Translations under genes and position numbers: made by a program | Shown: in pieces, positions 14,686 through 62,271 of the stretch | How positions within the stretch are numbered: position 1 is the stretch's first letter | Layout of the letters: the number at the start of each line of letters is the position of its first letter | Assembly: GCA_964016885.1 (NCBI GenBank) | Contig: OZ024761.1 | Coordinates: forward strand, 13,516,001-13,580,000 | DNA length: 64,000 nucleotides | Reading direction: 5' to 3' | Source of the DNA: Eledone cirrhosa | Taxonomy: Eukaryota | Notes under the pieces: generated by a model | The model's database searches: none | Told to the model about the DNA's origin: nothing | What the model saw: only the letters and a program-made list of their open reading frames with translations

Positions 14686-14782
14686 TTAATAGATGGACGG
14701 CTGGTTGTAGAATGGATTGTTGAAATGACTCTGTTGCACATTTACATCATCCATATTCACTAAAAGATCGTCTTGGTCTGAT
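14686..14782 (-). CDS. Exon 14 (cytoplasmic tail, stop)
   Basis: tacag|A TCA GAC...: SDQDDLLVNMDDVNVQQSHFNNPFYNQPSIY*; phase 2 matches exon 13. Confidence 0.88.
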
Positions 14783-17700
14783 CTGTAATACAGCTTATTG
14801 AACAGGTGTCTATAATAGAACAAAATTAGAGAGCTTACTGAACAGGTGTCTATAATAGAACAAAATTAGAGAGCTTACTGAACAGGTGTCTATAATAGAA
14901 CAAAATTAGAGAGCTTACTGAACAGGTGTCTATAATAGAACAAAATTAGAGAGCTTACTGAACAGGTGTCTATAATACAACAAAATTAGAGAGCTTACTG
15001 AACAGGTGTCTATAATACAACAAAATTAGAGAGCTTACTGAACAGGTGTCTATAATAGAACAAAATTAGAGAGCTTACTGAACAGGTGTCTATAATAGAA
15101 CAAAATTAGAGAGCTTACTGAACAGGTGTCTATAATACAACAAAATTAGAGAGCTTACTGAACAGGTGTCTATAATACAACAAAATTAGAGAGCTTACTG
15201 AACAGGTGTCTATAATAGAACAAAATTAGAGAGCTTACTGAACAGGTGTCTATAATACAACAAAATTAGAGAGCTTACTGAACAGGTGTCTATAATACAA
15301 CAAAATTAGAGAGCTTACTGAACAGGTGTCTATAATAGAACAAAATTAGAGAGCTTACTGAACAGGTGTCTATAATAGAACAAAATTAGAGAGCTTACTG
15401 AACAGGTGTCTATAATACAACAAAATTAGAGAGCTTACTGAACAGGTGTCTATAATACAACAAAATTAGAGAGCTTACTGAACAGGTGTCTATAATAGAA
15501 CAAAATTAGAGAGCTTACTGAACAGGTGTCTATAATACAACAAAATTAGAGAGCTTACTGAACAGGTGTCTATAATAGAACAAAATTAGAGAGCTTACTG
15601 AACAGGTGTCTATAATAGAACAAAATTAGAGAGCTTACTGAACAGGTGTCTATAATACAACAAAATTAGAGAGCTTACTGAACAGGTGTCTATAATACAA
15701 CAAAATTAGAGAGCTTACTGAACAGGTGTCTATAATAGAACAAAATTAGAGAGCTTACTGAACAGGTGTCTATAATACAACAAAATTAGAGAGCTTACTG
15801 AACAGGTGTCTATAATAGAACAAAATTAGAGAGCTTACTGAACAGGTGTCTATAATAGAACAAAATTAGAGAGCTTACTGAACAGGTGTCTATAATACAA
15901 CAAAATTAGAGAGCTTACTGAACAGGTGTCTATAATACAACAAAATTAGAGAGCTTACTGAACAGGTGTCTATAATAGAACAAAATTAGAGAGCTTACTG
16001 AACAGGTGTCTATAATACAACAAAATTAGAGAGCTTACTGAACAGGTGTCTATAATACAACAAAATTAGAGAGCTTACTGAACAGGTGTCTATAATACAA
16101 CAAAATTAGAGAGCTTACTGAACAGGTGTCTATAATACAACAAAATTAGAGAGCTTACTGAACAGGTGTCTATAATACAACAAAATTAGAGAGCTTACTG
16201 AACAGGTGTCTATAATAGAACAAAATTAGAGAGCTTACTGAACAGGTGTCTATAATACAACAAAATTAGAGAGCTTACTGAACAGGTGTCTATAATAGAA
16301 CAAAATTAGAGAGCTTACTGAACAGGTGTCTATAATAGAACAGCAGAAATAGAGAGCTTACTGAACAGAATTAGAGAGTTTACTGAACGGAGGGGGGGGG
16401 GCAAAAGGAGAAGGATGGTGAAGAGAATAAGGGAAAGGAAGTGGGGTGAAAGGAAAGTGGAGAAGTGAGAGGAAGAGAAGGGGGAAGAGAAGGAGGGGAA
16501 GACGAGAGTGGAGAGGACGAGGAAGAGAAGGAGGGTGAAGAGGATGAGGAAGAGAAGGAGGGTGGAGAGAGAAAGGAAGAGAAGGAGGGTGGAGAGGATG
16601 AGGGAGAGGAAGAGAAGGAGGGTGGAGAGGATGAGGGAAAGGAAGAGAAGGGTGGAGAGGATGAGGGAGAAGGGTCGAGAGGATGAGGGAGAGGAAGAGA
16701 AGGAGGGTGGAGAGGATGAGGGAAAGGAAGAGAAGGGTGGAGAGGAGGGTGGAGAGGATGAGGGAGAGGAAGAGAAGGAGGGTGGAGAGAGGAAGAGAAG
16801 GGGGTGGAGAGGATGAGGGAGAAAGAGAGGAAGAGAAGAAGGGTGAAGAAGTAACTCACCTCAGGTTCTTCCGTTTATATTTCATGTAAATAAAAACAAT
16901 GGCAACAATAATCACAAACACTGCCAACAGACTAAGTAGGACGGCTAGTGTTACGTTGCCATTTGAAGTATCCTCTGTAAAACAAAAAAAATGTATTTGT
17001 CCAATTGAATCAGAGATTTTGGTTTTGAATTATAAACTTCTCCTTTCGCCCACACCTCATAGGAAAAATTTGCATGGCATTAACCCTTTAGCATTTACAT
17101 TACTCTATATATACTATTGTATTTTCACAGTCAAGGCTTTACCTCACATAACATTTACATTACTCTATATATACTATTGTATTTTCACAGTCAAGGCTTT
17201 ACCTCACATAACATTTACATTACTCTATATATACTATTGTATTTTCACAGTAAAGGCTTTACCTAACATAACATTTACATTACTCTATATATACTATTGT
17301 ATTTTCACAGTAAAGGCTTTACCTCACATAACATTTACATTACTCTATATATACTATTGTATTTTCACAGTAAAGGCTTTACCTAACATAACATTTACAT
17401 TACTCTATATATACTATTGTATTTTCACAGTGAAGGCTTTACCCCACATAATATCTCACGTAGCATTTACGTTACTCTATATATACTATTGTATTTTCAC
17501 AGTGAAGGCTTTACCCCACATAATATCTCACGTAGCATTTACATTACTCTATATATACTATTGTATTTTCACAGTGAAGGCTTTACCTCACATAATATCT
17601 CACATAACATTTACATTACTCTATATATACTATTGTATTTTCACAGTAAAGGCTTTACCTCACATAATATCTCACATAACATTTACATTACTCTATATAT

Positions 17701-20700: not shown

Positions 20701-23700
20701 TAACAACAACAACAACAACAATGGTTTCTGATTTAGGCACAAGGCCAGCAATTGGGAGGAGGGGAGGGGGACAAGAAAGTCGATTAAATCGACCCCAGTG
20801 CATGACTGGTACTTTATTTTATCGACCCCGTAAGGATGAAAGGCAAAGTTAACCTCGGCGGGATTTGAACTCAGATCATAAAGGACTGTAACTCAATGCT
20901 GCAAAGCATGGCGTCCGGCCCTCTACCGACACTGCCAATCCACCGCCCTTTAAAATGATTTCTGATTTAGGCACAAAGCCAACAATTTGAAGGGAGGGGA
21001 AAGTCGATTAAATCGACCCCAGTGAGTTACTGGTACTTTATTCAGTCGACCGACCCCATAAGGATGAAAGACAAAGCTAACTTCGGGATTTGAACTCAGA
21101 CTGTAAAGGCCCGTAACTCTGCCGCGAAGCATGGTCTCCCTTAATATTAATAATTGTTTCTACTTTAGGCACAAGGCCAGCAATTACCCCAGTACATTAC
21201 TGGTACTTTATTTTATCGACCCCGTAAGGATGAAAGGCAAAGTCAACCTCGGCAGGATTTGAACTCAGATCGTAAAGGGACGTAACTCTATGCTGGAAAG
21301 CATGGCGTCCGACCCTTTACCGATACTGCCAATCCACCGCCCATATATTAATAATAATAATTGTTTCTACTTTTGGCACAAGGCCAGCAATTACCCCAGT
21401 ACATTACTGGTACTTTAATTTATCGACCCTGTAAGGATGAAAGGCAAAGTTAACCTCGGCAGGATTTGAACTCAGATGTAAAGGGACGTAACTCTATGCT
21501 AGAAAGCATGGCGTCCGACTCTCTACCGATGCTGCAACAATAATATACCTACTTGGAACAGCAAGGAGCCTCTCATGTGACCTGAACATCTGAGGCTGTG
21601 GGTAACAGCAGCCTCAGATATTCATTAGGGTAATTATTCCAATTGAATATCATCAATAACTGAGACATCATTATCATCATCATCACCGTTTTACGTCCAT
21701 TCTTCCACGCTAGCATGGGATAGACGGGTTGTCCTGTTGTGGGCAGTGTCTGGTCGGCTGACCTTCTCTTGCTCATACAGGAACTGATTTGGCTTGATTT
21801 CTACAGCTGGATGCCCTTCCTAACACCAACCTCATTTACAGTGAGTGCTGGGTGCTTTTTTGCCGTGGCACCTCCACGACCACCCTACGGTGGGTGGTAT
21901 GTGGGCATATTGTCTATATGCTTCAGCTTTGGCTTGTACCCATGGGAGGTCGGGTACTCTGTATTACTGCGTGACAGTAGTAAAAAAAATAATTTATAAT
22001 AATTTTGTTCTTACCTTTAGACAGTTTGTCCGGTGTAAAGGTTGACTGTCGATACACAGCGATGTGTTTCTCGCCAACTGTGAAGTTCGCATAATTTGGT
22101 GTAAATAGAGATGTGTAGCATTTAAAAAGTGATATTAGGTTAGTTGCGTTATAACCCAGCAAGGTAATATTCACTACCGCCATGTGTTTCGTGAGGTTCG
22201 TGGAAATATCTAGAAACATATAAAACAATAATAATAAAAATAATAATAATTTTTTTATTATTAGTCACAAGGGCCGAACATAGAGGAGAATATATGACAG
22301 GGGACAGTGGGGAATATGGAGGACAATATAGGGGACAGTGGGGAATATGGAGGACAATATAGGGGACAGTGGGTAACAGAGGAGAATATATGACAGGGGA
22401 CAGTGGGGAATATGGAGGACAATATAGGGGAGAGTGGGTAACATAGAGGAGAATATATGAAAGGGGACAGTGGGGAATATGGAGGACAATAGAAAGACAG
22501 GGAAAGTGGGGAACATTGAAGATAATATATGACGGGACATAGAGGACAATATATGACAGGGGACAGTGGGGAATATAGAGAATACAAGGACAGGGGACAG
22601 TGGGGAATATTGAGGACAATACAGGGGACAGTGGGCAATATTGAGGACAATATAAAGACGGGATAGGTAGGGGGGGGGGTTACATGCAATCAGGTAGAAA
22701 AAATTAAAAACAAATAAACGAAAAAAAATATCAACAACAGAATTCCCCAATAAATGGGGTGGGGTGGGTGGGTACCACCCGGAGGGGGAGGATGATGTCA
22801 GCAACCCCATAAATCCCAACCCACCCTCATCTGCAAGAGCACCCTGGAAAGGTGCTACTCTCTCCCTCCATCTTTCCAGCCTACATGCTCCCTTGGCAGG
22901 ATTTGAACCCAGAACGTAAAGGGCCGTAACTCTATGACGCAAAGCATGGTGCTCGACGCTCTACCGATTCTGCCAAATAATGGTTTCTTATATAGGCACA
23001 AGGCCAGCAATTTGGGAGGAGGGGATAGTCAATTAAATCGACCCCAGTACATTACTGGTACTTTATTTTATCGACCCCCGTAAGGATGAAAGGCAAAGTT
23101 AACCTTGGCGGGATTTGAACTCAGAATGTAAGGGGCCGTAACTTTATGCCGCGAAGCATGGTGTCCGACGCTCTACTGATACTGCCAATCCATGATTTCT
23201 GATTTAGGCATAAGGGTCAATAATATTGTTAGGGAGCGGCAGGGGGGTTAAGTCAATTAAATTGACCCACGAAAAGCAAAGTTGAGAGAAAACAAGAAGA
23301 ACAGGAACCAGACCCCCCAAAAAACCAGTTAATTTACCTTTAAAGAAATCTTTCGATAACATGCAATTAGGTTTGCTACTGATCTTATCAACAAGCTCAT
23401 ATATGAACATTTCCTTAAACCTATCAATTTTCTCCTTCAAAACTACCACCATCTTTAGTTGCTTATGATGCTTCATTTCTGGACATTTATTCAATTTGTT
23501 GAAACTCGGGGCAGAAACTTTAATTTCCTTGTCTTCACATAAGTTCAGACTCCAGTCAGCAGATAACTCTCTGAAAGAAAGTAAACACCAACAATTACAA
23601 CAACAACAACAACATATCATCATCATCATCATCTTCGTTTAACGTCCATTTTCCACGCTAGCATGGGTTAGACGGGAGTTGTCCCACTTGAGGCAAGGCT

Positions 23701-26700
23701 GGTCGGGTGACCGTGTCTCGCTCGTATAGGACTATCTGGCAGGTTTTCTACGGCTGGATGCCCTTCCTAACACCAACCACATTTACAGTGTGGAACTGGG
23801 AACTTTTTAGCGTGTTACCTACACGGCCACATTAGAGAGTGGACTGTGTGTGTTTTTTGTCGTGACACCTACACGATCTTATATATGTATATAAATAATT
23901 GTTTCTACTTTTGGCACAAGGCCAGCAATTACCCAGTGCATTACTGGTACTTTATTCTATCGACCCCGTAAGGATGAAAGGCAAAGTTAACCTCGGCAGG
24001 ATTTGAACTCAGAATGGCAAGAGCCGTAACTCTATGCGTCAAAGCATGGCATCCGACCCTCTACCGATGCTGCCAATCCACCGTAATAACAGTAATACAG
24101 AAGACCCGCCTTGCCTATGTACAAAGAGAAACCTACAGTCAGTAGGCACCTCTTAACCAAATATACACCCCATCCCACTACCCCTACCCCTACCACCCCA
24201 CACCACCCTTTCTCTGTAAAGTTATGTTGGTATCACAACATCCAGTCCTAAACAAATGAGGTCGTGTAGGTGTCACGACAAAAAAACACACAGTCCACGC
24301 TGTAATGTGGCCATGTAGGTAACATGGTAAAAACCTCCCAGCCCCACACTGTAAACGTGGTTGGTGTTAGGAAGGGCATCCAGCCGTAGAAAACCCGCCA
24401 GACAGTCCTATACGAGCGAGACGACCAATCTTGCCTCAAGTGGGACAATTCCCGTCTAAACCCATGCTAGCGTGGAAGATGGATGTTAAACGATGGTGAT
24501 GATGATGATAATGAACACCACCAACAACAACAACAGCAGCAGCAGCAGCAACAATTACAACAACATATATATATAAATAAATAGTACAATTACTCCAAGA
24601 ATAACCTACATGAGAATTCTCGCAAACTCGCTACCTAACTAAGGAAAGCTCTTGTTGAGTCAAACATCATCATCATCACCATCATCATCATCATTTTACG
24701 TCCGCTTTTCCCTGCTTGCAAGGGTGGGACGGGAACTGATTCTGGCTTGATTTCTACAGCTGGGTGCCCTTCCTAACACCAACCTCATTTACAGTGTGGG
24801 CTGGGTGCTTTTTTTGCCGTGGCACCTCCACGACCACTTTGCAGTGGAATGATAGGGACCCCAGTCCCTATCATCTCATTTCTACAGCTGAGTAAACTGG
24901 AGCAATGTGAAATAAAGTGTCTTGCTCAAGGAAACAACACAGCACCCGGTCTGAGAATATATATATATATATATATATATATGTAAAAATAACACCACCA
25001 CCACCACCACCACCACCGACAGCAACAATTACAACAGCAACATAAATATATATATAACACCACCACCAACAACAACAGCAGCAATTACAACAACATATAT
25101 AAATAACACCACCACCACCAACAACAACAATTACAACAGCAACATAAATAACACCACCACCAACAACAACAACAATTACAACAACATATATATATAACAC
25201 CACCACCAACAACAACAACACCGACAACAACAATAATGGTTTCTCATATAGGCACAAGGCCAGCAATTTGGGAGGAGGGGAAGTCGAATAAATCGACCCC
25301 ATTGCGTGACTGGTACTTTATTTTATCAACCGCGTAAGGATGAAAGGCAAAGTTAACCTCGGCGCGATTTGAACTCAGATCATAAAGTGTCGTAACGCTG
25401 TGCTGCAAAGCATGGCGTCTGACACTCTACCGATTCTGCCAATCGACCACCCAACAATAATGAAAACAGTACCAACAACAATAACAAAAACAACATTCAA
25501 CAAAAACAATAACAAACACAATACCAACAACAATAACAGCAACAAAAACAATACCAACAACAACAACAAGAAAAAACAGTATCAACACCAACACCAACAA
25601 TAAAACACCAACAACAACTTAAGTGGTACAAATTCTGGATTATTTTCAAAATGATATGAAATTTCTAAGCAGTGTCTTTAACCCTTTAGCATTCAAACCA
25701 GCCATATCCGGCCAGAATTCTCTCACCTCTTTCTGTTCAAACTGGTGTAACCGGTTGCTTATACTTATGTTAAGGTATTGTTCTCAAAATAACTAATATC
25801 AAAGTTTCATAGATTCGATATTAAGTGAGATAAAGTGTTTAACGTGAAAATACAATAGTAGATATGTGTGTATTTGTGACAGCTGACACCTGTGCAGGTT
25901 TAGCTGGCCTCCTCCAAGGTATATCTCGTTAGAGGTGTCTTGGGTAATTTAATGGTAGGGACCCCAGTCCTATCATCTCATTTCTACAGCTGAGTAAACT
26001 GGAGCAACGTGAAATAAAGTGTCTTGCTCAAGGAAACAACACATCACCCGGTCCAAGAATTGATCTCACAACCTTTCGATTGCACACCCAATGCTCTAAC
26101 CACTAAGCCATGTGCCTTCTATAGTAAATATAGAGTAATATAAATACTAAAGGGTTGATTAAATATATGTTAATGAAAATTTGTATTGTAAAATGAGGGG
26201 GAGCATGTTTATCAGGTGGGTTAGTATGAAAAAGGGTTAAGAAAGCTTGTTGTTCTAATCCAACATACCTAGGGCTTATTTCCACTGGTCTGTGTGAATC
26301 ACACAGCTTTATTTTGGGTTTAGTGTTGTTTTTCTTCATCGGAATATCTGCCATCATATAGGCAACACAGTCAATTGGTGGAGAATCTTTGGGGGCTCCG
26401 GCTGTGTATAACCTCAGGACACCTGTGTTACCCAAGCGCTGGCAAAATAGACAAATGAATAAATAAATTAAAAGTAAATAAACATAGAAAATGGTGAGTG
26501 GAATTTGAAAATTGAATTAATCTTTAGCGTGCTAGTATTTTTTATGAGTTGTTTTCCATAACACTGAATTATGTATTAAGGGTAGATCACTCTAAGGTGC
26601 TTCGTGTTGCCAATAACGTGTTAAAGGTTAACAGATTTTGCTGTATTTTTGACTGAACCAAATAGTCTAATAAGAGGGCAAGCCATGTTCAGAAGAGCTG

Positions 26701-29700
26701 TCAGTAAAGTGAGAGTAGGTAATAAGTTTAGGGAGGAATTCAATGTACAGGTATGTGTCCATCAGGACTCAACCCTCAGCCCACTCCTGTTTATTATAAT
26801 TCTCCTGGCCATAACAGAGGAGTTTAAAACAGAGGCCATTACAGAGGAGTTTAAGTCCATGAGAACTTCTATATGCTGATGACCTGGTTCTTGTAACTGA
26901 AACTGTAGAAGAACTCATCATTTCATCATTTCATTTTACGTCCGCTTTTCCCTGCTTGCAAGGGTGGGACGGGAACTGATTCTGGCTTGATTTCTACAGC
27001 TGGATGCCCTTCCTAACACCAACCTCATTTACAGTGAGTGCTGGGTGCTTTTTTGCCGTGGCACCTCCACGGCCACTTTGCAGTGGAATGATAGGGATTG
27101 GGGTCCCTATCATCTCATTTCTACAGCTGAGTAAACTGGAGCAATGTGAAATAAAGTGTCTTGCTCAAGGAAACAACACATCACCCGGTCTGAGAATTGA
27201 ACTCACAACCTTTCGATTGCAAGGCCAATGCTCTAACCACTAAGCCATGTGTCTCCAACTATAAAAGAAATTCCAGCTTTGGAAACAGAACTTAGAATCA
27301 AAAGGGCTTGGAGCAATTTTGGGATAGAATAAAGTTTTATTAAAAAGAAAATAGGACAGAGCTCTGATCTCTTCAGGGCAGTGGCTTTACTTAATAAATA
27401 GGAACTCTATATGATGTACACAAAAGGTATTGTGGGATAGAAGGTATACTAACAAAAAAGGTAGACTTTGTATGTTGTATATGTACTGGGGTTGTTGATA
27501 GTAAGGGCATCTGTAAAATATACTTTTTCCAATCCCAGGAAGGATCCACAGAAGTGGGTGATAGCTTCTGCTACCTAGATGATCTAATTAGCGGTTGAGG
27601 TGGTTGCTTTGAGGGCATAGTGGCCAGAATGAGAACAAGATGAAAAAAGTTCAGGGAGCTACTGATTCTGTTGACAATAAAAGATTTCTCTCTATGAACA
27701 AAAAATTGACTATATGATGCCTGTGTGTGATGTTGCATGGTAGTGAGTAATGGGCAATAAATGCAGGAGAGAAATGAAGCAAGCATGCTGTAGGGTGGTG
27801 ATTGTGATGATGATGATGGTGATGACAGTGACAATGACAACGATGATAATGATGGTGATAACAATGACGATGATGATGATGAGGCTTCATTTAATTAATA
27901 AAATTAGTTTTGATTAACGAACCTTGAATAATTCTTTGTAGGCTGTGTTTTTCACACTCAGATACATAAGATGTTCCCTGTTGATCGATGAAGTATTAAA
28001 GTTTACGGCAATCATGACATTATCAAGTGCAGAATAGACAAGTGTGTACTGACCAACAGGAGATATTGCAGTGTCTGTAAGAAGAGACAAGAACGAGACT
28101 GTCGAGTTAGCATGGCCTCCTACAAAGTTGTATTTCGGGAAGTTTCTTGGCTGTTTTAATGATAAAAACACCAGTCCTATAACCCTTTAGCATTTAAACA
28201 AACCATATCCAGCCAGAATTCTTTCACCTATTCTGTTCAAACTGGCTGTAACCAGATGCTCATACTTATGTTAAGTTATTGTTCTCAAAATAAAGAAAAT
28301 ATCAAAATCTCATAGATTCGATATTATGTGAGGTAAAGCCCCTACTGTGAAAATATAATAGTAAATATAGAGTAATGTAAATGCTAAAGGGGTAATGTGG
28401 TTACAGCTCACACCTATGTAAGTTTAGCTGCCCTCCTTCGAGGTTGGATCTCATAGGAGGTTTCTTGGATGTTCTAATGATAGGGGATGCCAGTTCTACA
28501 ATGTTGTTACATCTCACACCTATGTAAGTTTAGCTGCCCTCCTTCGAGGTTGCATCTCATAGGAGGTTTCTTGGGTGTTCTAATGATAGGGGATGCCAGT
28601 TCTAAAATGTTGTTACATCTCACACCTATGTAGGTTTAGCTGGCTTCCTATAAGGTTGTATCTCATAGGAGGTTTCTTGGGTGTTTTACTGATAAAGGCA
28701 CCAGACCTATAATGCTGTTACATCTCACACACATGTAGGGTTAGCTGGCTTCCCTCAACATAGTATCTCATAGGTGGTTTCTTGGGTATTTTAACCCTTT
28801 AGCATTCACATTACTCTATATTTACTATTGTATTTTAACAGAAAAGTCTTTACCTCACATAATATCGAATCTACGAGATTTTGATATTATTTATTTTGAT
28901 AACCATACCTTAATGCTGGTATGAGCAGCCAGTTATGACTGGTTTGAACAGAAAATGGTGAGAGAATTCTGGCCAGATGCGTAAGTGGAGGTAGAACATA
29001 AGAGCCCCTGGATACAGAAACAACAACAGATCATTAAAATCAACTCACCTTTCAATTCAATCCAGTTATCTGACATCTTGATCTTACCCACCAATATCTC
29101 ATTAATTCTTAGAGTATTGCTGCTGACAGGTGTTGATGATGATGATGGTAATGATGTTGACGATGATGATGATGATGTTGATGCTGGTGATGTTGATGTT
29201 GGTGGTGATGGTGATGATGATGGTGATGATGTTGGTAATGTTGATGATGATGGTGGTGATGATGGTGATGATGTTGGTGGTGATGGTGATGATGGTGATG
29301 ATGTTGGTAATGTTGATGATGATGGTGGTGATGATGGTGATGATGTTGGTGGTGATGGTGATGATGGTGATGATGTTGGTAATGTTGATGATGATGGTGG
29401 TGATGATGGTGATGATGTTGGTGGTGATGATGATGGTGATGATGTTGTTGTTGGTGGTGGTGTTGTAATTTCTGTTGTTGTATCTGGGATCAAGGATGAT
29501 TCCTCCGTAGATGTCACCACAGTGTCACTCGGTGCTGTTCCTGTTATCACGGGAACGGACGTAGTGTCGTCGGTGGTGGTGGTGGTGGTGGTGGTGGTGG
29601 TGGCCGTCGTCATGCCAGTGCTCACCATATCTGTCAGCATCTCCGTCACTTCTTGGGAAGAACTTTCTGGCAGTGAAATTGACGTCGTTGAAGAACCATT

Positions 29701-31685
29701 TGATGCTGTCTCCAGGGAAACAGTAGTGGTCAATGTTGCTACTGATGATGATGATGATGATGACGCTGACGACAATGATGATTGTGGTGTTGATGTTGGT
29801 GATGATGTTGATGATGGTGAGGATGTTGATGGTGGTGAGGATGTTGATGGTCGTGATGAGGATGATGGTGATGATGTTGATGATGGTGGTGATGATGTTG
29901 ATGGTGATGATGATGTTGATGATGGTGAGGATGTTGATGGTGGTGATGATGTTGATGATGGTGGTGATAATGTTGATGGTGATGTAGTAGGACTTGTTGC
30001 AACACCAAATGCAGCCATGTCATCTGGCAGCTGTATGTATGATTGCAAACAGAGAAAGGAACAATTCGTCCGGGCAGAAGCAGGGTAGAACTTTGAGAAT
30101 AAGTCGCAATGACAGAATCTTACAAGGCTACTGATGTTGGTATTCTGAAATATTAGACATGGAATGTTAATAGGCATGGAAGGATGACGGTATAGACATG
30201 GAAGAATGACGGTATAGACATGGAAGAATGACGGTATAGACAAGGTTAAAAGCAGGAAAGAGGAGGAGAAGAAGAGAAAAACTAATTACCCGGTAGACAT
30301 ACTGTATATCTTGTTGTTGGGGAGGATATAGCTCTGGGTAGGTCTGAAAAATAAAGCATTTCAACATCTTCACAATGAGAAGAAGAAGAAGAAAAAGAAA
30401 AAGAAGAAAAAGAAGAAAAAGAAGAAGAAGAAGGCAGAGGAGGAGGAGAAAAATAATAATAAGAAGAAGAAAAAGGGGGAAAAGAAGAAGGGAGGGGGAG
30501 AAGAAGAAGAAGAAGGCAGAGGAGGAGGATGAGGAAAAGAAGAAGGAGGAGTGAGGGAAGGAGGGAGAAGGAACAATTAGTATGAAATTATACAAAAACA
30601 AAAAAATACAAAGAATAAAAAATAAAAATTTCATAAATAGAAGTTTAAAAAAGAGAATGTCCCACCACTCGTTCCATTGTTATTGGTCAAAACTTACCCA
30701 CATTTTCAGCCTGGTATTTATTGGTTGACTGTGATTATTACCAATAACCACCCCATCAATAACAGTTGACTGTGATGTGTTGGACGTAAAATTCAAGACA
30801 ACTGTAACAGTCTGTATTTGGACAATTGATAAAGAAAATAATTTCACTTTTAATCCTTTCATGGCCATATTTGGAATGAAATAACATTCTATTTCAATAA
30901 ATTACTGAAAAATTTTGAGAGATTTCCTAGAACTATTATTTCATTACTGAAATATGGGCGGAGGTGGTGAGAGTAGACCTTAGATCGCTGAAACTCACGG
31001 AGGAGATGACGAAGGACTGTGACAAGTGGAGAGATGCTGTGCTGAATAGGACCCATCCCACCTTTGCAAGCAGGGAAAAGCGGATGTAAAATGATGATGA
31101 TGATGATGATGATATATGGCTTAGTGGTTAGAGCATTGGCCTTGCAATCGAAAGGTTGTGAGTTCAATTCTCAGACCGGGTGATGTGTTGTTTCCTTGAG
31201 CAAGACACTTTATTTCACATTGCTCCAGTTTACTCAGCTGTAGAAATGAGATGATAGGGACTGGGGTCCCTATCATTCCACTGCAAAGTGGTCGTGGAGG
31301 TGCCACATCAAAAAAGCACCCAGCACTCACTGTAAATGAGGTTGGTGTTAGGAAGGGCATCCAGCTGTAGAAATCAAGCCAGAATCAGTTCCCGTCCCAC
31401 CCTTGCAAGCAGGGAAAAAGCGGACGTAAAAAATAAAAAAAAAATAAAAAAAATAAAAAAATTAAAAAAAATTTTGAATAGCGCCAGTTCGTAATTTGAA
31501 CTTGGGAATTTTATATTCTCCGAGTGAAAAGATCCTTCTGACGAGAGTTTTTCTTTGCAATGGATGCCGTAAGGACTGTCCATTTATTTTTGAAACTCGA
31601 AACCGATTCGGTAAAGGTAACCATAGTGAGTAAAGTTAATTTTTTAAAATTTATTTTGAAACTTTTTCTTATTTGCTAAACCTTG

Positions 31686-31720
<35 letters not shown>

Positions 31721-34700
31721 GGAAGATGCAGTAGAGGAAAACCATGAAAAACATGGGCGGAGGTGGTGAGTGCAGACCTCAGATCGCTGAAGCTGGCGGA
31801 GGAGATGTGTGTGTGCGGGAGAGAAGACTGCGATGGTATGGACATATGATGCGCATGGAGGATGACCGGTGAGTAAAGAAGTGCCAAGAAATCCCAGTAG
31901 AAGAAAGATGCTGTAGAGGAAGACCACCAAAAACATGGGCAGAGGTGGTGAGAGCAGACCTCAGATCGCTGAATAGGACCCGTCCCACCCTTGCAAGCAG
32001 GGAAAAGCGGACATAAAATGATGATGATGATGAGATAGTAACTTAACACATGGTTCTTACATAAAATTATGTTGGAAGATTTAAATTCTATTTCAATTAG
32101 TTACTGAAGAATTTTGAGTGATTTCTTAGAATTATTATTTCATTTGTGAAGTCGTGTGGCTGAGTGGTTAGAGAATTGGATTCACAATCGTGAGGTTGTG
32201 AGTTTGATTCCCGGACACAGCGATGCGTTATATCCTTCTGCATTTCATGTTACTCCTTCTGCCTGGAGTTGCGACCGGTAGATAGTATTCGCAATTGGAA
32301 AGACCAATGGAAACATTGTTTCCTCGGTCCGATTCGATGAGCTCCACCCTGGGATCTTGTCGATTGATTATCGACTTGGATAGTAACTTAACACGTGGTT
32401 CTTACATAAAATTATGTTGGAAGATTTAAATTCTATTTCAATTAGTTACTGAAGAATTTTGAGGGATTTATTAAATTTATTAATTATTTCATTACGAAGA
32501 TAGTAACTTAACACATGGTTCTACAGGAGTATGGGATTGATAGTCAGCTTCTTGCTGCCCTGATGCCAAGGACACAACAGCCTCTCTAGTGTTGCTGGTC
32601 ATCACAATAAATACACCCAGTACACGCTGTAAAGTGGTTGGTGATAGGAAGGACATCCAGCTGTAGAAAGCCTGTCAAACAAAGGGTTGGGTGGACCCTT
32701 CAGCTGTGTCAAGGACATAACAACTTCCCTAATGCACCTGGTAGAATGTGACACCCTACGTAAGCGAAATGCAGATCCCTCAGCCTGTCTGCAAGGTCAG
32801 TATCCCTACATCAGTACTGACTTTGTCTATGTAGACCTGTCCAATGCTTGCTAGCAGGGAAAGTGGATGTTAAGTGATAATGATGATGATAAATACTTTA
32901 AAACAAACAGGTGATAAAAGCTGACCTTGCTCAATTGCACCTCTCAAAGGTGATGACACAGGACCAAGACCTCTGGTGTTACACAGTAATACAGAAGACC
33001 CAAGTTCCCACAGGTACAAGCCGAAGCTGAAGCATATCGACAATATGCCCCCACGCCCTTCCCACTGTAAAGTGGTCATGTAGGCACCATGGTAAAAAAG
33101 CACCCAGCACTCACTGTAAATGATGTTGGTGTTAGGAAGGGCATCCAGCTGTAGAAATGAAGCCAAAATCAGTTCTGTATGAGCAAGACATGGTCACCTG
33201 ACTTGGCCCACAACAGGACAACCTGTCTAACCCATGCTAACATGGAGACATTGACATAAAATGGTGATGATGATGATGAGCTCTGCCCTGTGAAATAAAG
33301 GCTGGTTTCAGATGGTTTGATATCAAAACAGATAAGTAGTGACTTGATCCATTATAACCAGTCCAGCCCATGCCAACATGGAAAAGCGGACATGAAATGA
33401 TGATGATGATGTTTTATTTATTAAAGGGTTGTGTGAACCATGCAGAAAATTCCAATGGAGTAAAAATGGTGAAGTGCCAAACCTTTGCTGTTGCATTGAA
33501 GGGGATTTCCAAACTGTAATATTCCTTCTCATCAGTGGTAAATTGATCTAGCGATGTATTAGATGAGCTTTCGTTATTAATATACACAGCAATCATGAGG
33601 GACTTCAACTTCCATTTTGGCAAGCCACTACTGTGCAGAGTTACATTAAGGTTAGAACTTTTGAGAAATGACACTTGCTCAATATGAACTGGTGATAGGG
33701 GACAACTGTTGACCCTTCCTCTTGTTGGGGAACTGCTGGCCAATGGAATTAGGTGGACTTCTTCGTAACAAATAATAACATTGGATTGAACTGGTGAAGA
33801 GAAAATGTAAAAATAAACAATGAAAAAAAAAAAAATTTTATAAATGAAACTTCCTATTTATATAACCTTGTAGGAGGCCAGCTAAACCTACATAGTGAGA
33901 CCTGTAATAACATGATAGGACTGAGGTCCCCTATCATTAAAACACCCTTGAAACATCCTATTAGTGCACGAGGCCAGCTAAACCTACATAGTGAGACCTG
34001 TAATAACATGATAGGACTGAGGTCCCCTATCATTAAAACACCCTTGAAACTTCCTATTTATATAACCTTGTAGGAGGCCAGATAAACCTACATAGTGTGA
34101 GCTGTAATGATATGATAGGACTGAGGTCCCCTATCATTAAAACACCCTTAAAACATCCTATTAGTGTAGGAGGCGTGCTAAACCTACATAGTGTGAGCTG
34201 TAATAACATGATAGGACCGAGGACCCCTATCATTAAAAGACATATGGAACCTCCTTTTCAGCAGCAGTTCTTACTGATAATCAAACTTTCCAGTTGTTGT
34301 CTTCCTGTTTCTTCTACAACAACTACAACGGTACGCGATGGGGGCCACCCACAGCCCCGGCGGACAGAATGGAGAAGGCGTTTCCCTGGAGGAAGGCGAG
34401 GGAGACACGCTGGAAGAACCACTCCAACTCGCGGGGCTCACACCTGCAGCTGGCCAGCTCAGCGCCTATGGTGGTGAGTAAGGAGGTAGCCCTGGGGCTG
34501 AGGACACCAGAAGTCTCCACTGCCAGGGGTACGACCGCAAACGTGTCGGAGAGCGACCGGTATTTGAGGAGTTTGGTCCCCTCAGCCCGACGTGCAGCAG
34601 AACCTGGGTCAGTCGCAGACTGCACCAGGTTGCGGCTACAGAAAGTGTCGGTGCAAGTGGCATCCCAGACGAGGGGTTTGCCACCGCGGAAAGGAAGATG

Positions 34701-34979
34701 GTCATGCCATCTGGCCTTTTGCCGTCCCCTCGATCCAGTCCCACCGGCTCGAGCTGGGAAGGGAAGCCTGCAGGGTCCAAGCCAACCAGCTAAACTTACT
34801 TAAATGTGATCTGTAACAAAAAAATAATAATAGAGCCAGGCACTTCATTATTAAAACACCCAAGAAATCTTCTGTGAGATGTAAAGTAAACGTAAAGGTC
34901 TTTAAAAGTAAAGGTCTTTAATGGATTTCTAAGGGTACTGTCTTGAGATGGGAGAGAGATTGGCAGAAGTGTGTGTGTG

Positions 34980-35014
<35 letters not shown>

Positions 35015-36777
35015 AGTACAAGAAGGAGTAAGTGTGAGAGAGAGTGGGGGGGGGGGGCAATAGAGAGATACAAAGAGAGAGAGAGAGAGAAATAGTACTT
35101 ACAATCCCTTTTAGTAAAACTCTGAAGAATCTAGAAAAAATAATAAAACAAATGCCAAATTTAACATTTTTATTTAACCCTTTCATTACAATATTTCTAA
35201 TGAAAGACACTGTCTATGTTATTAACCCTTTCATTACCATATTTCTAATGAAAGACACTACCTATGTCATTAACCCTTTCATTACAATATTTCTAATGAA
35301 AGACACTGTCTATGTTATTAACCCTTTCATTACCATATTTCTAATGAAAGATACTACCTATGTCATTAACCCTTTCATTACCATATTTCTAATGAAAGAC
35401 ACTGTCTATGTTATTAACCCTTTCATTACCATATTTCTAATGAAAGACACTGTCTATGTCATTAACCCTTTCATTACCATATTTCTAATAAAAGACACTG
35501 TCTATGTCATTAACCCTTTCATTACCATATTTCTAAGGAAAGACACTACCTATGTCATTAACCCTTTCATTACCATATTTCTAATGAAAGACACTACCTA
35601 TGTCATTAACCTTTTCATTACCATATTTCTAATGAAAGACACTGTCTATGTCATTAACCCTTTCATTACCATATTTCTAATAAAAGACACTGTCTATGTC
35701 ATTAACCCTTTCATTACCATATTTCTAATGAAAGACACTGTCTATGTCATTAACCCTTTCATTACCATATTTCTAATGAAAGACACTGTCTATGTCATTA
35801 ACCCTTTCATTACCATATTTCTAATAAAAGACACTGTCGATGTCATTAACCCTTTCATTACCATATTTCTAATGAAAGACACTGTCTATGTCATTAACCC
35901 TTTCATTACCATATTTCTAATGAAAGACACTGTCTATGTCATTAACCCTTTCATTACCATATTTCTAATAAAAGACACTACCTATGTCATTAACCCTTTC
36001 ATTACCATATTTCTAATGAAAGACACTGTCTATGTCATTAACCCTTTCATTACCATATTTCTAATAAAAGACACTGTCTATGTCATTAACCCTTTCATTA
36101 CCATATTTCTAATGAAAGACACTGTCTATGTCATTAACCCTTTCATTACCATATTTCTAATGAAAGACACTGTCTATGTCATTAACCCTTTCATTACCAT
36201 ATTTCTAATAAAAGACACTGTCTATGTCATTAACCCTTTCATTACCATATTTCTAATAAAAGACACTACCTATGTCATTAACCCTTTCATTACCATATTT
36301 CTAATGAAAGACACTGTCTATGTCATTAACCCTTTCATTACCATATTTCTAATGAAAGACACTGTCTATGTCATTAACCCTTTCATTACCATATTTCTAA
36401 TGAAAGACACTGTAGTTACAGATACATATATACATCATCAACATCTTATGTTTGTTTTTCCATGCTGGCATGGGTTGAACAGATTAGCATGTTGGTCTGA
36501 GACCAGACAGGCCAGGATGACCATCTACCACCCCCACCCCACACACACACACACTGACCCACTTAGTAAAAAACCAGTCTGAAGAAGATAAGCAGTTGAC
36601 ATAGTTACCTGCGATTTATTTGACAAGGTCAGAGTGAATGTCATGTTGTGGTACATCTTTAAATTCTCCATCATCTTACTGCTGTTGGTGGGGCTAAGTA
36701 CAAAAAAACCCTTACTGTTGGTGTACAGTCCATCTAATGACATATTGTTAGATCTGGAATATATGTATAATATATAA

Positions 36778-36826
<49 letters not shown>

Positions 36827-39800
36827 GAGGTTATATTTAATTTGTTGGGATTCAACAAATTAAATATATCACCCTCAATAAATGTAATATCTCCACTATC
36901 CAGGAAGCTCCAACCGTTAAGGTTGCCTTTTTTTCCAGGTCTGTCAATATTTATTTATAAAACAGTTGGAAACACATGGCTTAGTGGTTAGAGCACTGGG
37001 CTTGCAATCGAAAGGTTGTGAGTTCAATTCTCAGACCGGGTGATGTGTTGTTTCCTTGAGCAAGACACTTTATTTCACATTGCTCCAGTTTACTCAGCTG
37101 TAGAAATGAGATGATGGCGACTGGGGTCTCTATCATTCCACTGCAAATGATAGGGACCCCAGTCGCCATCATCTCATTTCTACAGCTGAGTAAACTGGAG
37201 CAATGTGAAATAAAGTGTCTTGCTCAAGGAAACAACACATCACCCGGTCTGAGAATTGAACTCAACCTTTCAATTGCAAGGCCAATACTCTAACCACTAA
37301 GCCATGTGCCTCCATATATATATATATACACACACATACATACATATAATATAATAAATCACATGAATACATCAATTTCACAGAAAAAAGGACTAACATT
37401 TATAGTATATTTTAAGGGAGTGATCTGTGTAATACTGATCTTTAACAAATATTAAAACGCTATTAAAATATTTGACAAGTCATACTATGAGGTATGCCTC
37501 TGTGGTCATGTAAGTCCCACCAATGTATTTTTACCTATGGAGGTCTAATAATTTATATAAATGGTTTAATGAACCAGCCACCGTAGTGTTTCTCACCCAT
37601 GGTAATCAAAGACAGATCAATACATCTGAAGAAGAAGTTTCTTTTTTCACTCTCTGACGATAGCTTATCTGGCTTTAATAGAAAGTGCTCCTAGTCCAGG
37701 TAGCGCCCCCTTTCAAGTGACACCCATGGCACGTGCCATGCTTGCCACCATACCCTAGATACACCTCTGCCACATGATGTACTATGCAGACATGAACCTA
37801 TCTGATTGGTCAATCAACAGGTTTTATTGACCCCTGAAAGAATGAAAGGCAAAGGTGACATCAGATCATGAAGAGCCGGAAAAAATATCACAAAGCATTT
37901 TGTCCGACACTCTACCGATTCTGCCAAATCCACAACAACAACAACAAGAACAACACATTACTAATAAATTAAAGACTTACATGCTACCGTTGCTTATTTG
38001 TAACGAGATATCTGTCAATGAGACATTTCCACTGCCACCGTCATAGATTTCTATAAAATCCTCCAGTGGATTGTTACTCCTGTACACCTCATTGATCCAT
38101 ACCTATAACAATAATAAACCGATACCAGGATTTAAAGAAGGAGTTAAAAAGGATTTGGGGCTGTCGTGAGATCAAGGTCGTCCTGATTGTCATAGGAACA
38201 CTAGGTACTATCTCAAAGAGTTTTCAAGGATGGTTAAAGAACATTAGTCCAGCCTTGTTTTTTGGAACCACTTCAAAAGGCTTGCTTGCTGGGAACAGCA
38301 AGAACCCTGTGAAACGTCCTGAATATCTAAGGCTGCAGGTAGCGGTTTGATGTTCATTTGAATAAACTTTCCAGTTAAATAACATCAATGACTGAGACTC
38401 AAAGAATGATAATAACAATAATTGTTTCTACTTTAGGCCCAAGGCCAGCAATTATCCCAGTGTATTACTGGTACTTTATTTTATCGACCCCGTAAGGGTG
38501 AAAGGCAAAGTTAACCTCGGCGGGATTTGAACTCAGACCATAAAGGGCCGAAACTCTTTGCTGCAAAGCATGGCGTCAGACGTTCTACCGATTCTGCCAA
38601 TCAACCAATAATAATAATTTCTACTTTAGGCACAAGGCCAGAAATTTGGGGAGAGGGGAAAGTTGATCAAATCAACCCCCAGTGTATTACTGGTACTTTA
38701 TGTTATCGACCCCGTAAGGATGAAAGGCAAAGCTAACCTCGGCGGGATTTGAACTCAGAACATAAAGGGCCCTAACTCTATGCTGCAAAGCATGGTGTCT
38801 GACGCTCTACCGATTCTGCTGCCAATATAATAATAGCAAAGGTTTCTCTAAGAAAAATACAAGGCTGCTGCTGCTGCTACAATAATTAACAAAAATGGCA
38901 AAACATAAATGATTTTTTTTTTTTTAACTTATTTCTAAATTCAGGCAGAAAGCCACATTAAATAAATAAATAAAATAACAATAACAATAATAATAAAACA
39001 AAGAGGAAAACTCGAAGTTGTGGGTTGCTTAAGTAACTGTTTGCGGGCCTTCTCATTATTTTACATTTCTATATTTCACATATAGTAATTTTTTTTTAAG
39101 ATCAAGAATCAAGATTGAGGAAGCTCAAGACAAAGCAGAAGGAACAAAGACAGGAGAAAGATGAGGGAAGGGGAAGATCAGGGCAGAGAAAGATGAGGGA
39201 AGGGGAAGATCAGGAGAGAGAAAGATGAGGGAAGGGGAAGATCAGGGCAGAGAAAGATGAGGGAAGGGGAAGATCAGGAGAGAGAAAGATGAGGGAAGGG
39301 GAAGATCAGGGCAGAGAAAGATGAGGGAAGGGGAAGATCAGGAGAGAGAAAGATTGAGGGAGAGGAAGATCAGGGCAGAGAAAGATTGAGGGAGAGGAAG
39401 ATCAGGGCAGAGAAAGATGAGGGAAGGGGAAGATCAGGAGAGAGAAAGATTGAGGGAGAGGAAGATCAGGGCAGAGAAAGATTGAGGGAGAGGAAGATCA
39501 GGGCAGAGAAAGATTGAGAGAGGATGATTGAGAGAAAGGACGATTGAGAGAGAGGAAGATTGAGACAGAATGATAAGGACAGAAGATCAAGACGGGAAGA
39601 TCAAAGGAGAGAAGATGATCAAAGGAGAAGATGATCAAGACAGAAGATCAAAGGAGAGAAGATGATCAAAAGAGAGGGTGATCAAGACAGAAGATCAAAG
39701 GAGAGAAGATGATCAAAAGAGAGGGTGATCAAGACAGAAGATCAAAGGAGAGAAGATGATCAAAGGAGAAGATGATCAAGACAGAAGATCAAAGGAGAGA

Positions 39801-39989
39801 AGATGATCAAAAGAGAGGGTGATCAAAAAGGAGAAAAGGAAAGAGACAATAAAAAATATACAAAAAGATGAGAGAATAAAATAATTGATGAAGTAAATTG
39901 TATACCTTTGGCAGTATTTCAGTGAGGGAAAGACATGTGGGAGATAACAGCAATAAGAACAATAATTCTGGTAATATTAAATAAGACAT
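14686..39989 (-). CDS. 14-exon gene for an uncharacterised 970-aa type I transmembrane protein with LTD-like repeats, mucin stalk and endocytic tail
   Basis: All 14 exons are bounded by AG/GT with matching phases; total 2913 nt open; signal peptide, INE...IE(I/L) motifs, TM helix and FNNPFY occur in sensible order. Confidence 0.9.
14792..16386. repeat. 40-bp minisatellite, ~39 copies
   Basis: Unit gagcttactgaacaggtgtctataata(g/c)aacaaaattaga. Confidence 0.97.
16400..16850. repeat. Purine-rich ~33-bp minisatellite
   Basis: ggagggtggagaggatgagggagaggaagagaa repeats. Confidence 0.85.
16860..16974 (-). CDS. Exon 13 (transmembrane helix)
   Basis: ttttacag|..EDTSNGNVTLAVLLSLLAVFVIIVAIVFIYMKYKRKNLR|gtgagt. 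Confidence 0.92.
17080..20280. mobile_element. piggyBac-type MITE with ~2.9-kb internal tandem expansion (60/70/72-bp units)
   Basis: Starts ttaacccttta gcatttacattactc, ends aaatgctaaagggttaa; unit acatttacattactctatatatactattgtattttcacagtaaaggctttacctcacata(atatctcaca(ta)). Confidence 0.88.
20500..20700 (+). mobile_element. Degraded R4/Dong-like non-LTR 3' fragment
   Basis: Remnant ..ALG..VQK..AHILRKVL C-terminus. Confidence 0.5.
20720..21536 (-). mobile_element. Head-to-tail cluster of four SINE A copies
   Basis: Copies at ~20720-20948, 20955-21134, 21152-21342, 21358-21536. Confidence 0.88.
22015..22209 (-). CDS. Exon 12
   Basis: tttctag|..DISTNLTKHMAVVNITLLGY...STFTPDKLSK G|gtaaga; phase 1-1. 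Confidence 0.88.
22278..22655. repeat. G-rich ~30-bp minisatellite
   Basis: ggggacagtggggaatatggaggacaatata variants. Confidence 0.85.
22890..23191 (-). mobile_element. SINE A copies (partial + full)
   Basis: Same family motifs; further copies at ~23897-24083 and 25236-25450. Confidence 0.85.
23338..23570 (-). CDS. Exon 11
   Basis: ctttcag|A ELSADWSLNLCEDKEIKVSAPSFNKLNKC...KDFFK G|gtaaat; phase 2-1. Confidence 0.88.
25678..25865. mobile_element. piggyBac-type MITE, partial (same family as 11590 and 17080)
   Basis: ttaaccctttagcattcaaaccagccatatccggccagaattc; other copies at 28180-28396 and 28792-28980. Confidence 0.75.
26269..26438 (-). CDS. Exon 10
   Basis: ttgccag|RLGNTGVLRLY...PIDCVAY...VEISP AG|gtatgt; phase 0-2. 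Confidence 0.88.
26675..27795 (+). pseudogene. Decayed RTE copy with nested SINE B
   Basis: VSKVRVG...VHQDSTLSPLLFII, frameshifted YADD, many stops; SINE B on the minus strand at ~26935-27256. Confidence 0.85.
27923..28074 (-). CDS. Exon 9
   Basis: cttacag|..DTAISPVGQYTLVYS...YKELFK|gttcgt; phase 1-0. Confidence 0.85.
28400..28792. repeat. ~106-bp tandem repeat, ~4 copies
   Basis: gttacatctcacacctatgtaagtttagctg...ggaggtttcttggg; related inverted array at 33850-34240. Confidence 0.8.
29049..30144 (-). CDS. Exon 8 (mucin-like S/T/P stalk and start of the third LTD-like repeat)
   Basis: tttcag|NTNISSLVRFC...S/T/P-rich...LRINEILVGKIKMSDNWIELK G|gtgagt; 1096 nt, phase 0-1. Confidence 0.92.
30290..30343 (-). 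CDS. Exon 7
   Basis: ttttcag|TYPELYPPQQQDIQYVYR|gtaatt. Confidence 0.8.
30698..30811 (-). CDS. Exon 6
   Basis: atacag|TVTVVLNFTS...IDGVVIG...LKMW|gtaagt. Confidence 0.85.
30953..31430 (+). mobile_element. RTE family-1 3' end followed by SINE B
   Basis: 30953-31112 matches 8038-8203; SINE B at 31117-31430. More RTE 3' ends at 31718-32032. Confidence 0.85.
31534..31617 (+). ncRNA. Type I hammerhead ribozyme with extended stem II (Penelope fragment)
   Basis: cctt CTGACGA gagttt...aaactc GAAA ccgattcgg TA aagg; all three stems pair. Confidence 0.8.
33483..33790 (-). CDS. Exon 5
   Basis: caccag|TT QSNVIICYEE...SSPTRGRVNSC...FNATAK|gtttgg; phase 1-0. Confidence 0.85.
33850..34240. repeat. ~105-bp tandem repeat, ~4 copies
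   Basis: ggccagctaaacctacatagtgagacctgtaataacatgataggactgaggtcccctatcattaaaacaccc. Confidence 0.85.
34240..34782 (-). mobile_element. CRE-clade non-LTR retrotransposon 3' fragment (restriction-like endonuclease)
   Basis: LEPVGLDRGDGKRPDG...K.LKY...VPLAVETSG...FFQRVSLAFLQGNAFSIL with a frameshift; GC-rich. Confidence 0.8.
35103..35130 (-). CDS. Exon 4 (28-nt microexon)
   Basis: ttttctag|ATT CTT CAG AGT TTT ACT AAA AGG GAT T|gtaagt; required to bridge phase 0 to phase 1. Confidence 0.8.
35172..36412. repeat. 45-bp minisatellite, ~27 copies
   Basis: ttaaccctttcattaccatatttctaatgaaagacactgtctatgtca-type unit. Confidence 0.97.
36609..36753 (-). CDS. Exon 3
   Basis: ttccag|A SNNMSLDGLYTNSKGFFVLS...SNKSQ|gtaact; phase 2-0. 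Confidence 0.88.
36967..37314. repeat. Palindrome of two SINE B 5' halves (~170-bp arms)
   Basis: The arms are near-perfect reverse complements around the loop ccactgca. Confidence 0.92.
37981..38102 (-). CDS. Exon 2 (start of the first LTD-like repeat)
   Basis: gttatag|VWINEVYRSNNPLEDFIEIYDGGSGNVSLTDISLQISNGS AT|gtaagt. Confidence 0.9.
38120..38405 (+). mobile_element. R4/Dong-clade non-LTR 3' fragment
   Basis: RIWGCREIKVVLIVIGTLGTI...LQKACLLGTARTL; sits in (TAA)-rich flanks. A similar end lies at 21545-21665. Confidence 0.75.
38418..38825 (-). mobile_element. Two tandem SINE A copies
   Basis: Family motifs as above. Confidence 0.85.
39150..39830. repeat. Two purine-rich minisatellites (~32-bp and ~44-bp units)
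   Basis: gatcagggcagagaaagatgagggaaggggaa; gatcaagacagaagatcaaaggagagaagat. Confidence 0.85.
39906..39989 (-). CDS. Exon 1 coding (signal peptide)
   Basis: tttcag|AA ATG MSYLILPELLFLLLLSPTCLSLTEILPK|gtatac; the acceptor 2 nt before the ATG implies an upstream non-coding exon. Confidence 0.88.
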
Positions 39990-40056: not shown

Positions 40057-40446
40057 TATATTAATAAAAGGAATTCCAACTTTGTCTGATTTACTCGTTT
40101 TATTTACAATCCTTTAAAATTTATAATGGTATTAGAATGAAATAGTATGGTAGAATATTAAATGTTAAGTGTTAATTGAACAAGTACTTTCATGCTTTCG
40201 CAATCTTCAGGTTCATATTCTGTGGTGACAGTCAAGTTTGCAATTTTTACAGTTGAAAATTGCAAACTTGACTGTCACCACAGAATATGAACCTGAAGAT
40301 TGCGAAAGCATGAAAGTACTTGTTCAATTAACACTTAACATTTAATATTCTACCATACTATTTCATTCTAATACCATTATAAATTTAAAAGGATTGTAAA
40401 TAAAACGAGTAAATCAGACAAAGTTGGAATTCCTTTTATTAATATA
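40057..40446. repeat. Near-perfect 390-bp palindrome of Penelope pLTR origin, one hammerhead per arm
   Basis: ~190-bp arms around tacagttg; tgaac CTGAAGA ttgcgaaagcat GAAA gtac TT gttca at 40288-40326 (+) and 40177-40215 (-). Confidence 0.92.
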
Positions 40447-43236: not shown

Positions 43237-43257
43237 ATGTATGTGTAAAAAGTGCAC

Positions 43258-50866: not shown

Positions 50867-50901
<35 letters not shown>

Positions 50902-50906
50902 TATTA

Positions 50907-50948
<42 letters not shown>

Positions 50949-54779: not shown

Positions 54780-62271
<7,492 letters not shown>

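Follow-up and report, generated by a model that had tools for sequence, protein, structure and literature searches.

Gene structure

A 14-exon gene spans positions 39989 to 14686 on the minus strand of a 64,000-nucleotide stretch of the Eledone cirrhosa genome (assembly GCA_964016885.1, contig OZ024761.1, forward-strand positions 13,516,001 to 13,580,000), hereafter the window, in whose numbering all positions are given. Its predicted product is an octopod member of a family of type I membrane proteins found in animals, which combine lamin-tail domain (LTD) repeats with a SEA-like module, a single membrane helix and a tail that mostly contains a phi-x-NPxY motif. The octopod form is reduced to three degenerate repeats. 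Exon coordinates are collected with the other features of the window in Table 1.

Joined from 39989 to 14686, the exons yield 2913 nt that encode 970 amino acids (aa) and a stop with no internal stop codon, and all 13 introns have GT-AG boundaries. This reproduces exactly the phase-consistent chain proposed in an earlier, sequence-only reading of the window, whose 16 quoted peptide motifs were all located on the minus strand in the expected order (38102 to 14707). The donors match on average 7.4 of 9 consensus positions, against 4.4 across all 1709 GT sites of the span, while the acceptors average 71% pyrimidine against a background of 49%; with the corrected last acceptor (14809) included, neither mean was matched in any of 100,000 random draws. 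Each exon aligns to a counterpart in Octopus bimaculoides LOC106868692 (P0001) or in a hypothetical protein of Octopus vulgaris (P0002), and the splice junctions are supported through this homology to other gene predictions. Together these comparisons confirm the predicted chain as a genuine octopus gene. The weakest exon is the fourth, where two of nine residues are identical yet the length fits without a gap; its acceptor, which belongs to the training set, scored 13.0 against 6.7 for an in-phase 19-nt alternative.

Both ends of the model can be refined. Nine extra residues in the O. vulgaris tail match the 27 nt upstream of 14782, where the earlier reading began the last exon, so the homologous acceptor is 14809. 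The last exon probably begins there, which would lengthen the protein to 979 aa; either acceptor is in frame. At the other end, an acceptor-like site 2 nt upstream of the ATG scores 9.0, within the range of the gene's own acceptors under leave-one-out scoring (−3.1 to 11.7). Such a site implies an upstream exon, and coding exon 1 is probably preceded by a non-coding one. Hydropathy peaks at residues 1-27 and 903-935, as expected from that measure for a signal-peptide-like N-terminus and a single C-terminal helix.

Orthologues in Octopus

The gene had been described as hidden, which it is not, since orthologues are already among the public predictions for two Octopus species. Both P0001 and P0002 are themselves gene predictions. 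The Eledone product is collinear with P0001 over exons 1-10 and with P0002 over exons 3-14, sharing with both the three repeats and the stalk (longer in Eledone) and with P0002 also the helix and tail. P0001 reads into intron 10 and then ends, and in P0002 the signal peptide is missing, as are 15 residues of the putative SEA-like domain. Because both appear incomplete, the Eledone model is the fullest of the three and corrects truncated predictions for the two Octopus species. Word-indexed searches, which are of low sensitivity, returned only these two proteins as close relatives, and none from squid, cuttlefish or any other named mollusc.

Conservation is uneven along the protein. Parts of the ectodomain are 32-54% identical to the Octopus orthologues (60-71% between O. 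bimaculoides and O. vulgaris), whereas against O. vulgaris the helix is 70% and the tail 79% identical. The tail core that holds both internalisation motifs reaches 86%. The ectodomain figures point most likely to a more distant octopod than either Octopus species as the source of the window.

Lamin-tail repeats and an animal family

The LTD-like nature of the repeats, claimed from their motifs, is borne out by several lines of evidence. Exon 2 alone matches Pfam LTD (PF00932) with an E value of 4.6e-4 and 21 bits, under the gathering cut-off of 34.3. A profile of the N-terminal part, compared with 1.84 billion representative sequences, returned 81 proteins: the two octopus proteins, 13 classed by architecture as animal-like (the library carries no taxonomy) and 66 others, one of which, P0026, groups with the animal set in a tree of repeats. 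The Pfam cut-off is passed by 12 of the 13 animal-like relatives. Seven relatives possess a membrane helix and have 4-12 repeats each (mostly 6-12) of about 180 aa in tandem, ending in RC..P..NxC, a signature that the octopod gene shares. A profile built from 46 family repeats finds all three octopod repeats in register, with hhalign probabilities of 97.8, 37.0 and 93.4 for repeats 1, 2 and 3. In predicted structure repeat 2 takes the form of a lamin-type, Ig-like beta-sandwich and ties with the Ig domain of lamin B1. Foldseek comparisons of two whole models gave generic Ig/FN3 matches only; searching PDB sequences with the family profile yielded no match, and neither did Rfam.

The order of the repeats is also informative. 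Family repeats were divided by position into ten classes, each with 4-7 sequences. Octopod repeat 2 best fits class D (40.2; next class 27.0; highest of 40 shuffles 25.6). Repeat 1, which is about 50 aa short, matches through its first half class B (81.7) or C (75.3), the classes that precede D, and repeat 3 scores much alike against H, E, D and I (37.6-42.3, where the best shuffle against I reaches 17.0) while occupying the position of class I. These matches in order link the gene specifically to the animal family, not just to LTDs at large. Placement in the repeat tree was rejected as a basis for classifying repeats 2 and 3, whose branches are 3.7 and 6.2 long and whose neighbours contradict the profile test.

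The closest architectural parallels are P0003, P0005, P0013, P0054, P0067 and P0078, together with chordate Atlas clusters named "LTD domain-containing". They share the repeat type, a B- or C-like repeat before class D, a terminal repeat after which come CP and apparently the SEA-like module, and then a single helix and the phi-x-NPxY tail. The chordate clusters are the nearest to the C-terminal half (0.92 and 0.91), sharing 148 and 158 features where 170 is typical within a family. That similar membrane proteins exist in other animals, as the earlier reading held, is supported by these clusters and the 13 animal-like matches. The octopod gene differs in having three degenerate repeats against 8-12 in the five long members, a 298-aa stalk and a strict acidic dileucine. 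A further relative, P0009, combines an N-terminal Frizzled cysteine-rich domain with six LTD repeats and has neither a SEA-like segment nor an NPxY.

Databases already list the orthologues and the family as uncharacterised, and apparently unstudied, LTD proteins. We take the vertebrate family to be that of zebrafish si:ch211-183d21.1 (PANTHER PTHR37397). In the excerpted text of one study this name appears only as a table entry (PMC6423051), and another treats an intermediate filament (IF) protein (PMC9229212). LTD proteins of octopus skin mucus (PMC11431876, PMC10138644, both in excerpt) were considered as products of this gene and set aside; they are probably intermediate filaments, since the accessible part of PMC11431876 counts equal numbers of IF rod domains (9 and 9). 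Among the papers listed in searches of the openly searchable literature, none describes an animal multi-LTD/SEA family, and no paper there combines lamin tail and SEA domains.

Relation to bacterial repeats

The repeats had been called bacterial-type, and the animal and non-animal consensus lines are nearly identical. A scan of bacterial genomes with an animal protein gave 69 pattern matches and no confirmed relative. With a bacterial-like alignment, 614 stretches matched, of which 496 were confirmed as relatives and 79 loci retained, spanning many phyla and many of them marine. All 79 match the animal profile, and 29 encode an ExeM-like nuclease in the same open reading frame (ORF). The best identity between an animal and a bacterial repeat is 53% over 179 aa (median 40%), in agreement with the earlier label.

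In a tree, all 73 animal-like repeats stand apart from 150 bacterial repeats with a support of 1.0, which suggests a single origin of the repeats in animals. As the tree is unrooted and its bacterial set was chosen with a bacterial query, gene transfer from bacteria is a possibility rather than a result.

Secreted bacterial LTD repeats, which occur as accessory modules of ExeM/NucH nucleases and in Bacteroides BT_1938 (DUF4876, PDB 4q1z), share the fold and a near-identical consensus. Unlike ExeM and NucH, none of the 13 animal-like matches contains a nuclease domain, and P0001 and P0002 have no NCBIfam match to an EEP nuclease. A DNA-binding role has been proposed for the LTDs of bacterial DNases (PMC4486849, in excerpt). 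The family gives a handle on what secreted LTDs bind.

Stalk and putative SEA-like module

Between repeats 2 and 3 lies a stalk of 298 aa, 81% of which are S, T or P, as the sequence-only reading had estimated at about 300. That reading had overlooked a further domain at residues ~790-895. This segment appears SEA-like and is collinear with the family (14.2 bits, above 40 of 40 shuffles), a weak profile similarity. Among the predicted structures, a SEA fold is seen in the relative P0078 only.

MUC1 combines a mucin stretch, a SEA domain and a transmembrane helix, with autoproteolysis at G-S-V-V-V (PMC6491460, in excerpt). This motif is not kept in the octopods, where the aligned position reads HMAVV in Eledone and SHTLV in O. 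vulgaris; as the family's GS-V is lost, the octopod module is probably not self-cleaved. The six family relatives named above all retain GS-V/T at this position, so the long family members are predicted to be autoproteolysed and sheddable. MUC1 and MUC16 resemble the octopod protein in their S/T/P stalk, one helix and short tail, and probably in their SEA module. The octopod protein differs by its LTD cap, a folded LTD repeat between stalk and SEA and the lack of GSVVV, and no sequence relation to mucin genes is shown.

Cytosolic tail

The two endocytic motifs proposed earlier fared differently. A phi-x-NPxY motif, FNNPFY in Eledone, is present in five of seven family tails and in both octopus tails, against 0.1-1.6% of shuffled tails where their letters permit it. 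The strict dileucine [DE]xxxL[LI] is confined to the two octopus tails, with a related acidic-hydrophobic stretch in four of the seven others. LDL-receptor-type receptors are type I proteins with an O-linked stalk. The octopod protein likewise appears to be type I, and it carries the FXNPXY signal, which recruits PTB adaptors, while dileucine binds AP-2 (motif definitions from an excerpt of PMC2882754). The likeness is an analogy only; Pfam detects no LDL-A, EGF or YWTD module in the octopus proteins.

An array of terminal splice acceptors

The last intron-exon junction is repeated in tandem as a 40-bp minisatellite which, as assembled, presents 39 acceptors 40 nt apart; the earlier reading had overlooked it. 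Each unit joins 22 nt from the end of intron 13 (a CTAAT branch-like site, a T tract and TAG) to 18 nt from the start of exon 14. A scoring matrix derived from the other 12 acceptors of the gene gives the copies 6.3-8.2, the last copy 8.2 and the earlier-proposed site at 14782 7.1, so that nothing in its local sequence sets the last copy apart. A collapsed assembly artefact was considered and is disfavoured by the two kinds of unit (20 and 18 copies) in aperiodic order. A near-repeat of ~14 nt flanks both sides of the last junction, and slippage on it would explain the origin of the array. Just upstream in the intron lies a pyrimidine-rich repeat of ~470 nt (16390-16850).

The tail behind the array is intact and conserved, which argues that distal acceptors are used. 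A partial precedent is the human CBS 844ins68 allele, in which a duplicated intron/exon junction creates competing 3' splice sites and is resolved toward the distal one (PMC2630376, in excerpt). Two sites compete there; in Eledone there are 39, at a terminal exon that decides whether the sorting motifs are present. A literature query found no precedent for such an array, and was too narrow to exclude one. As a natural experiment, the locus could show which of dozens of identical acceptors the spliceosome selects for a terminal exon, and how, since the outcome can be read clearly in the protein.

Proposed function and alternatives

From the structure of the gene, its homology and family membership, the fold class and the conserved motifs described above, we infer that the gene is expressed and that its product would be glycosylated, displayed at the cell surface, bound to a ligand and endocytosed. 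The favoured reading, to which we give a probability of about 0.55, is that of a mucin-stalked surface glycoprotein whose LTD pair would bind an extracellular polymer and which would be internalised through PTB adaptors and AP-2. The protein would most likely work as a cross between a tethered mucin and a cargo receptor of the LDL-receptor type. Its putatively O-glycosylated stalk, being long, would hold repeats 1 and 2 out beyond the glycocalyx, where the pair could bind a glycan, a microbial surface or nucleic acid. FNNPFY would recruit PTB-domain adaptors of the Dab2/ARH/Numb class and DQDDLL would recruit AP-2, so that the protein might cycle through clathrin pits, probably with its SEA module uncleaved. 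Of the "endocytic or surface receptor" first proposed, family membership and tail motifs have held up; receptor role and endocytosis keep their conjectural standing. With its layout of bacterial-type LTDs, a SEA-like module and a conserved NPxY, the family can be put to the test as a possible animal uptake or barrier receptor that has been overlooked.

Several observations weigh against this reading. The whole P0001 and P0002 proteins have no Pfam LTD match, and the O. vulgaris model has a mean predicted local distance difference test (pLDDT) of 45. Repeat 1 aligns to the family over its first ~65-71 columns only, and the conserved NGPDAVALY core is gone, so an ancestral binding site may be lost. 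Of the SEA-like segment, hhalign gives a weak probability of 1.9-5.5%; in O. vulgaris the region shows a matching beta-alpha-beta-alpha-beta pattern with a pLDDT under 50 and 15 residues missing, and no SEA entry is listed for the model. Phi-x-NPxY is absent from two of the seven family tails, the strict dileucine from all seven, and NPxY also serves in signalling and sorting. At the array, 38 of the 39 acceptors lead to a short tail that stops 13 codons on with neither sorting motif, the last copy alone leading to the full tail, and 17 of the upstream copies share the local sequence of that last one. Even in bacteria the ligand is not established, because the LTD of Shewanella ExeM enhances activity in vitro and can be dispensed with in vivo, its role being stated as unknown in the accessible text (PMC6085458).

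The alternative that survives best, though unlikely, is a structural tethered mucin forming a static apical glycocalyx or barrier, in which the LTDs are degenerate spacers and NPxY serves polarised delivery or scaffolding. The MUC1-like layout (PMC6491460, in excerpt), the S/T/P content of the stalk, 23 N-glycan sequons, the loss of core repeat motifs and the fast change of the ectodomain even between the two Octopus species all suit a static mucin; two canonical internalisation motifs kept in the highly conserved tail core do not, nor does an NPxY common to distant family members that have no long stalk.

As a doubtful extension of the favoured reading, animals may have taken up a bacterial polymer-binding LTD module once and built from it an endocytic SEA receptor class, the acceptor array being a length-variable switch between internalised receptor and surface-retained mucin.

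Less probable again is a cell-recognition or adhesion receptor, acting between host and microbe or between cells and signalling through NPxY-bound PTB proteins, with repeat number and stalk setting its reach. Tandem Ig-like folds, a rapidly diverging ectodomain over a conserved tail, and close repeats on secreted proteins of many marine bacteria would accord with such a role, whereas the octopod acidic dileucine suggests trafficking.

It is improbable that the gene in this species mostly yields a tail-truncated, non-internalised protein, with the full tail as a minor product. The first strong acceptor past the ~470-nt pyrimidine tract would then be one of the 38 upstream copies, which score on a par with the last. 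Against such truncation, the tail behind the array keeps its identity to O. vulgaris and both motifs, which argues that it is translated; CBS 844ins68 favours the distal site (PMC2630376, in excerpt), and the second in-frame acceptor at 14782 provides an escape. Least credible is a chance or pseudogene construct, for which the few identities of exon 4 could be cited against fourteen exons without stop or frameshift, strong splice signals and collinear orthologues in two species.

Surrounding window

The window consists of animal DNA that is rich in AT and contains long (AT)n tracts as well as minisatellites and ORFs of retrotransposons (Table 1).

Table 1. Exons of the octopod gene and other features of the window.
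Feature	Position	Strand	Evidence or remark
Coding exon 1: ATG, signal-peptide-like hydrophobic N-terminus	39906..39989	-	17/28 identical to P0001
Exon 2: start of LTD repeat 1 (INEV..EDFIEIYDGG)	37981..38102	-	Pfam LTD E 4.6e-4; 21/40 identical to P0001
Exon 3: continuation of repeat 1	36609..36753	-	splice model, homology
Exon 4: 28-nt micro-exon restoring phase	35103..35130	-	length matches P0001 with no gap
Exon 5: end of repeat 1, first half of repeat 2	33483..33790	-	~60% identical to P0001 and P0002; repeat 2 resembles class D
Exon 6: repeat 2	30698..30811	-	splice model, homology
Exon 7: repeat 2	30290..30343	-	9-10/18 identical to P0001 and P0002
Exon 8: end of repeat 2, stalk (29116-30009), start of repeat 3	29049..30144	-	splice model, composition
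Exon 9: repeat 3	27923..28074	-	homology, class profiles
Exon 10: repeat 3 (IDCVAY)	26269..26438	-	homology, class profiles
Exon 11: last part of repeat 3, first half of putative SEA-like domain	23338..23570	-	profile alignments
Exon 12: second half of putative SEA-like domain; family GS-V motif not kept	22015..22209	-	profile alignment
Exon 13: single transmembrane helix, basic stop-transfer	16860..16974	-	hydropathy peak 3.39; 27/39 identical to P0002
Exon 14: tail with DQDDLL (14761-14778), FNNPFY (14707-14724), stop	14686..14809	-	tail 79% identical to P0002
40-bp minisatellite, 39 copies of last splice-acceptor junction	14792..16368	-	repeat scan, acceptor scoring
Intronic minisatellite, 72-bp unit	17386-19993		
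Intronic minisatellite, 106-bp unit	28393-28794		
Intronic minisatellite, 96-bp unit	33845-34238		
Intronic minisatellite, 48-bp unit	35174-36413		
Intronic minisatellite, 16/32/47-bp units	39154-39834		
GC-rich open frame, 158 aa, in intron 4	34323-34799	-	no Pfam match
GIY-YIG endonuclease remnant	2626-3063	-	Pfam E 5e-5
Non-LTR retrotransposon ORF, 1046 aa: endonuclease, reverse transcriptase, PHD finger	5033-8173	+	
Non-LTR retrotransposon ORF, 624 aa: reverse transcriptase, PHD	41500-43374	-	
Non-LTR retrotransposon ORF, 1211 aa: endonuclease, reverse transcriptase, C2H2 fingers	50869-54504	+	
(AT)n-type microsatellite, ~7.5 kb	54780-62272		7% GC

Two of the three non-LTR ORFs appear full length and open, and a decayed copy of the one at 5033-8173 lies near 62270-63150. 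The GIY-YIG remnant probably comes from what we take to be a Penelope-like element. Several of the intronic minisatellites end in TTAACCCTTT-like termini, which we take as suggestive of non-autonomous DNA transposons, and the open frame in intron 4 presumably resembles the end of a retroelement protein. Two near-perfect palindromes, 99% complementary with 8-nt spacers, are found at 40057-40446 (191-nt arms), ending ~65 nt short of the coding exon 1 acceptor, and at 37019-37264 (119-nt arms), within intron 2. Both could be assembly artefacts or real inverted duplications that form double-stranded RNA.

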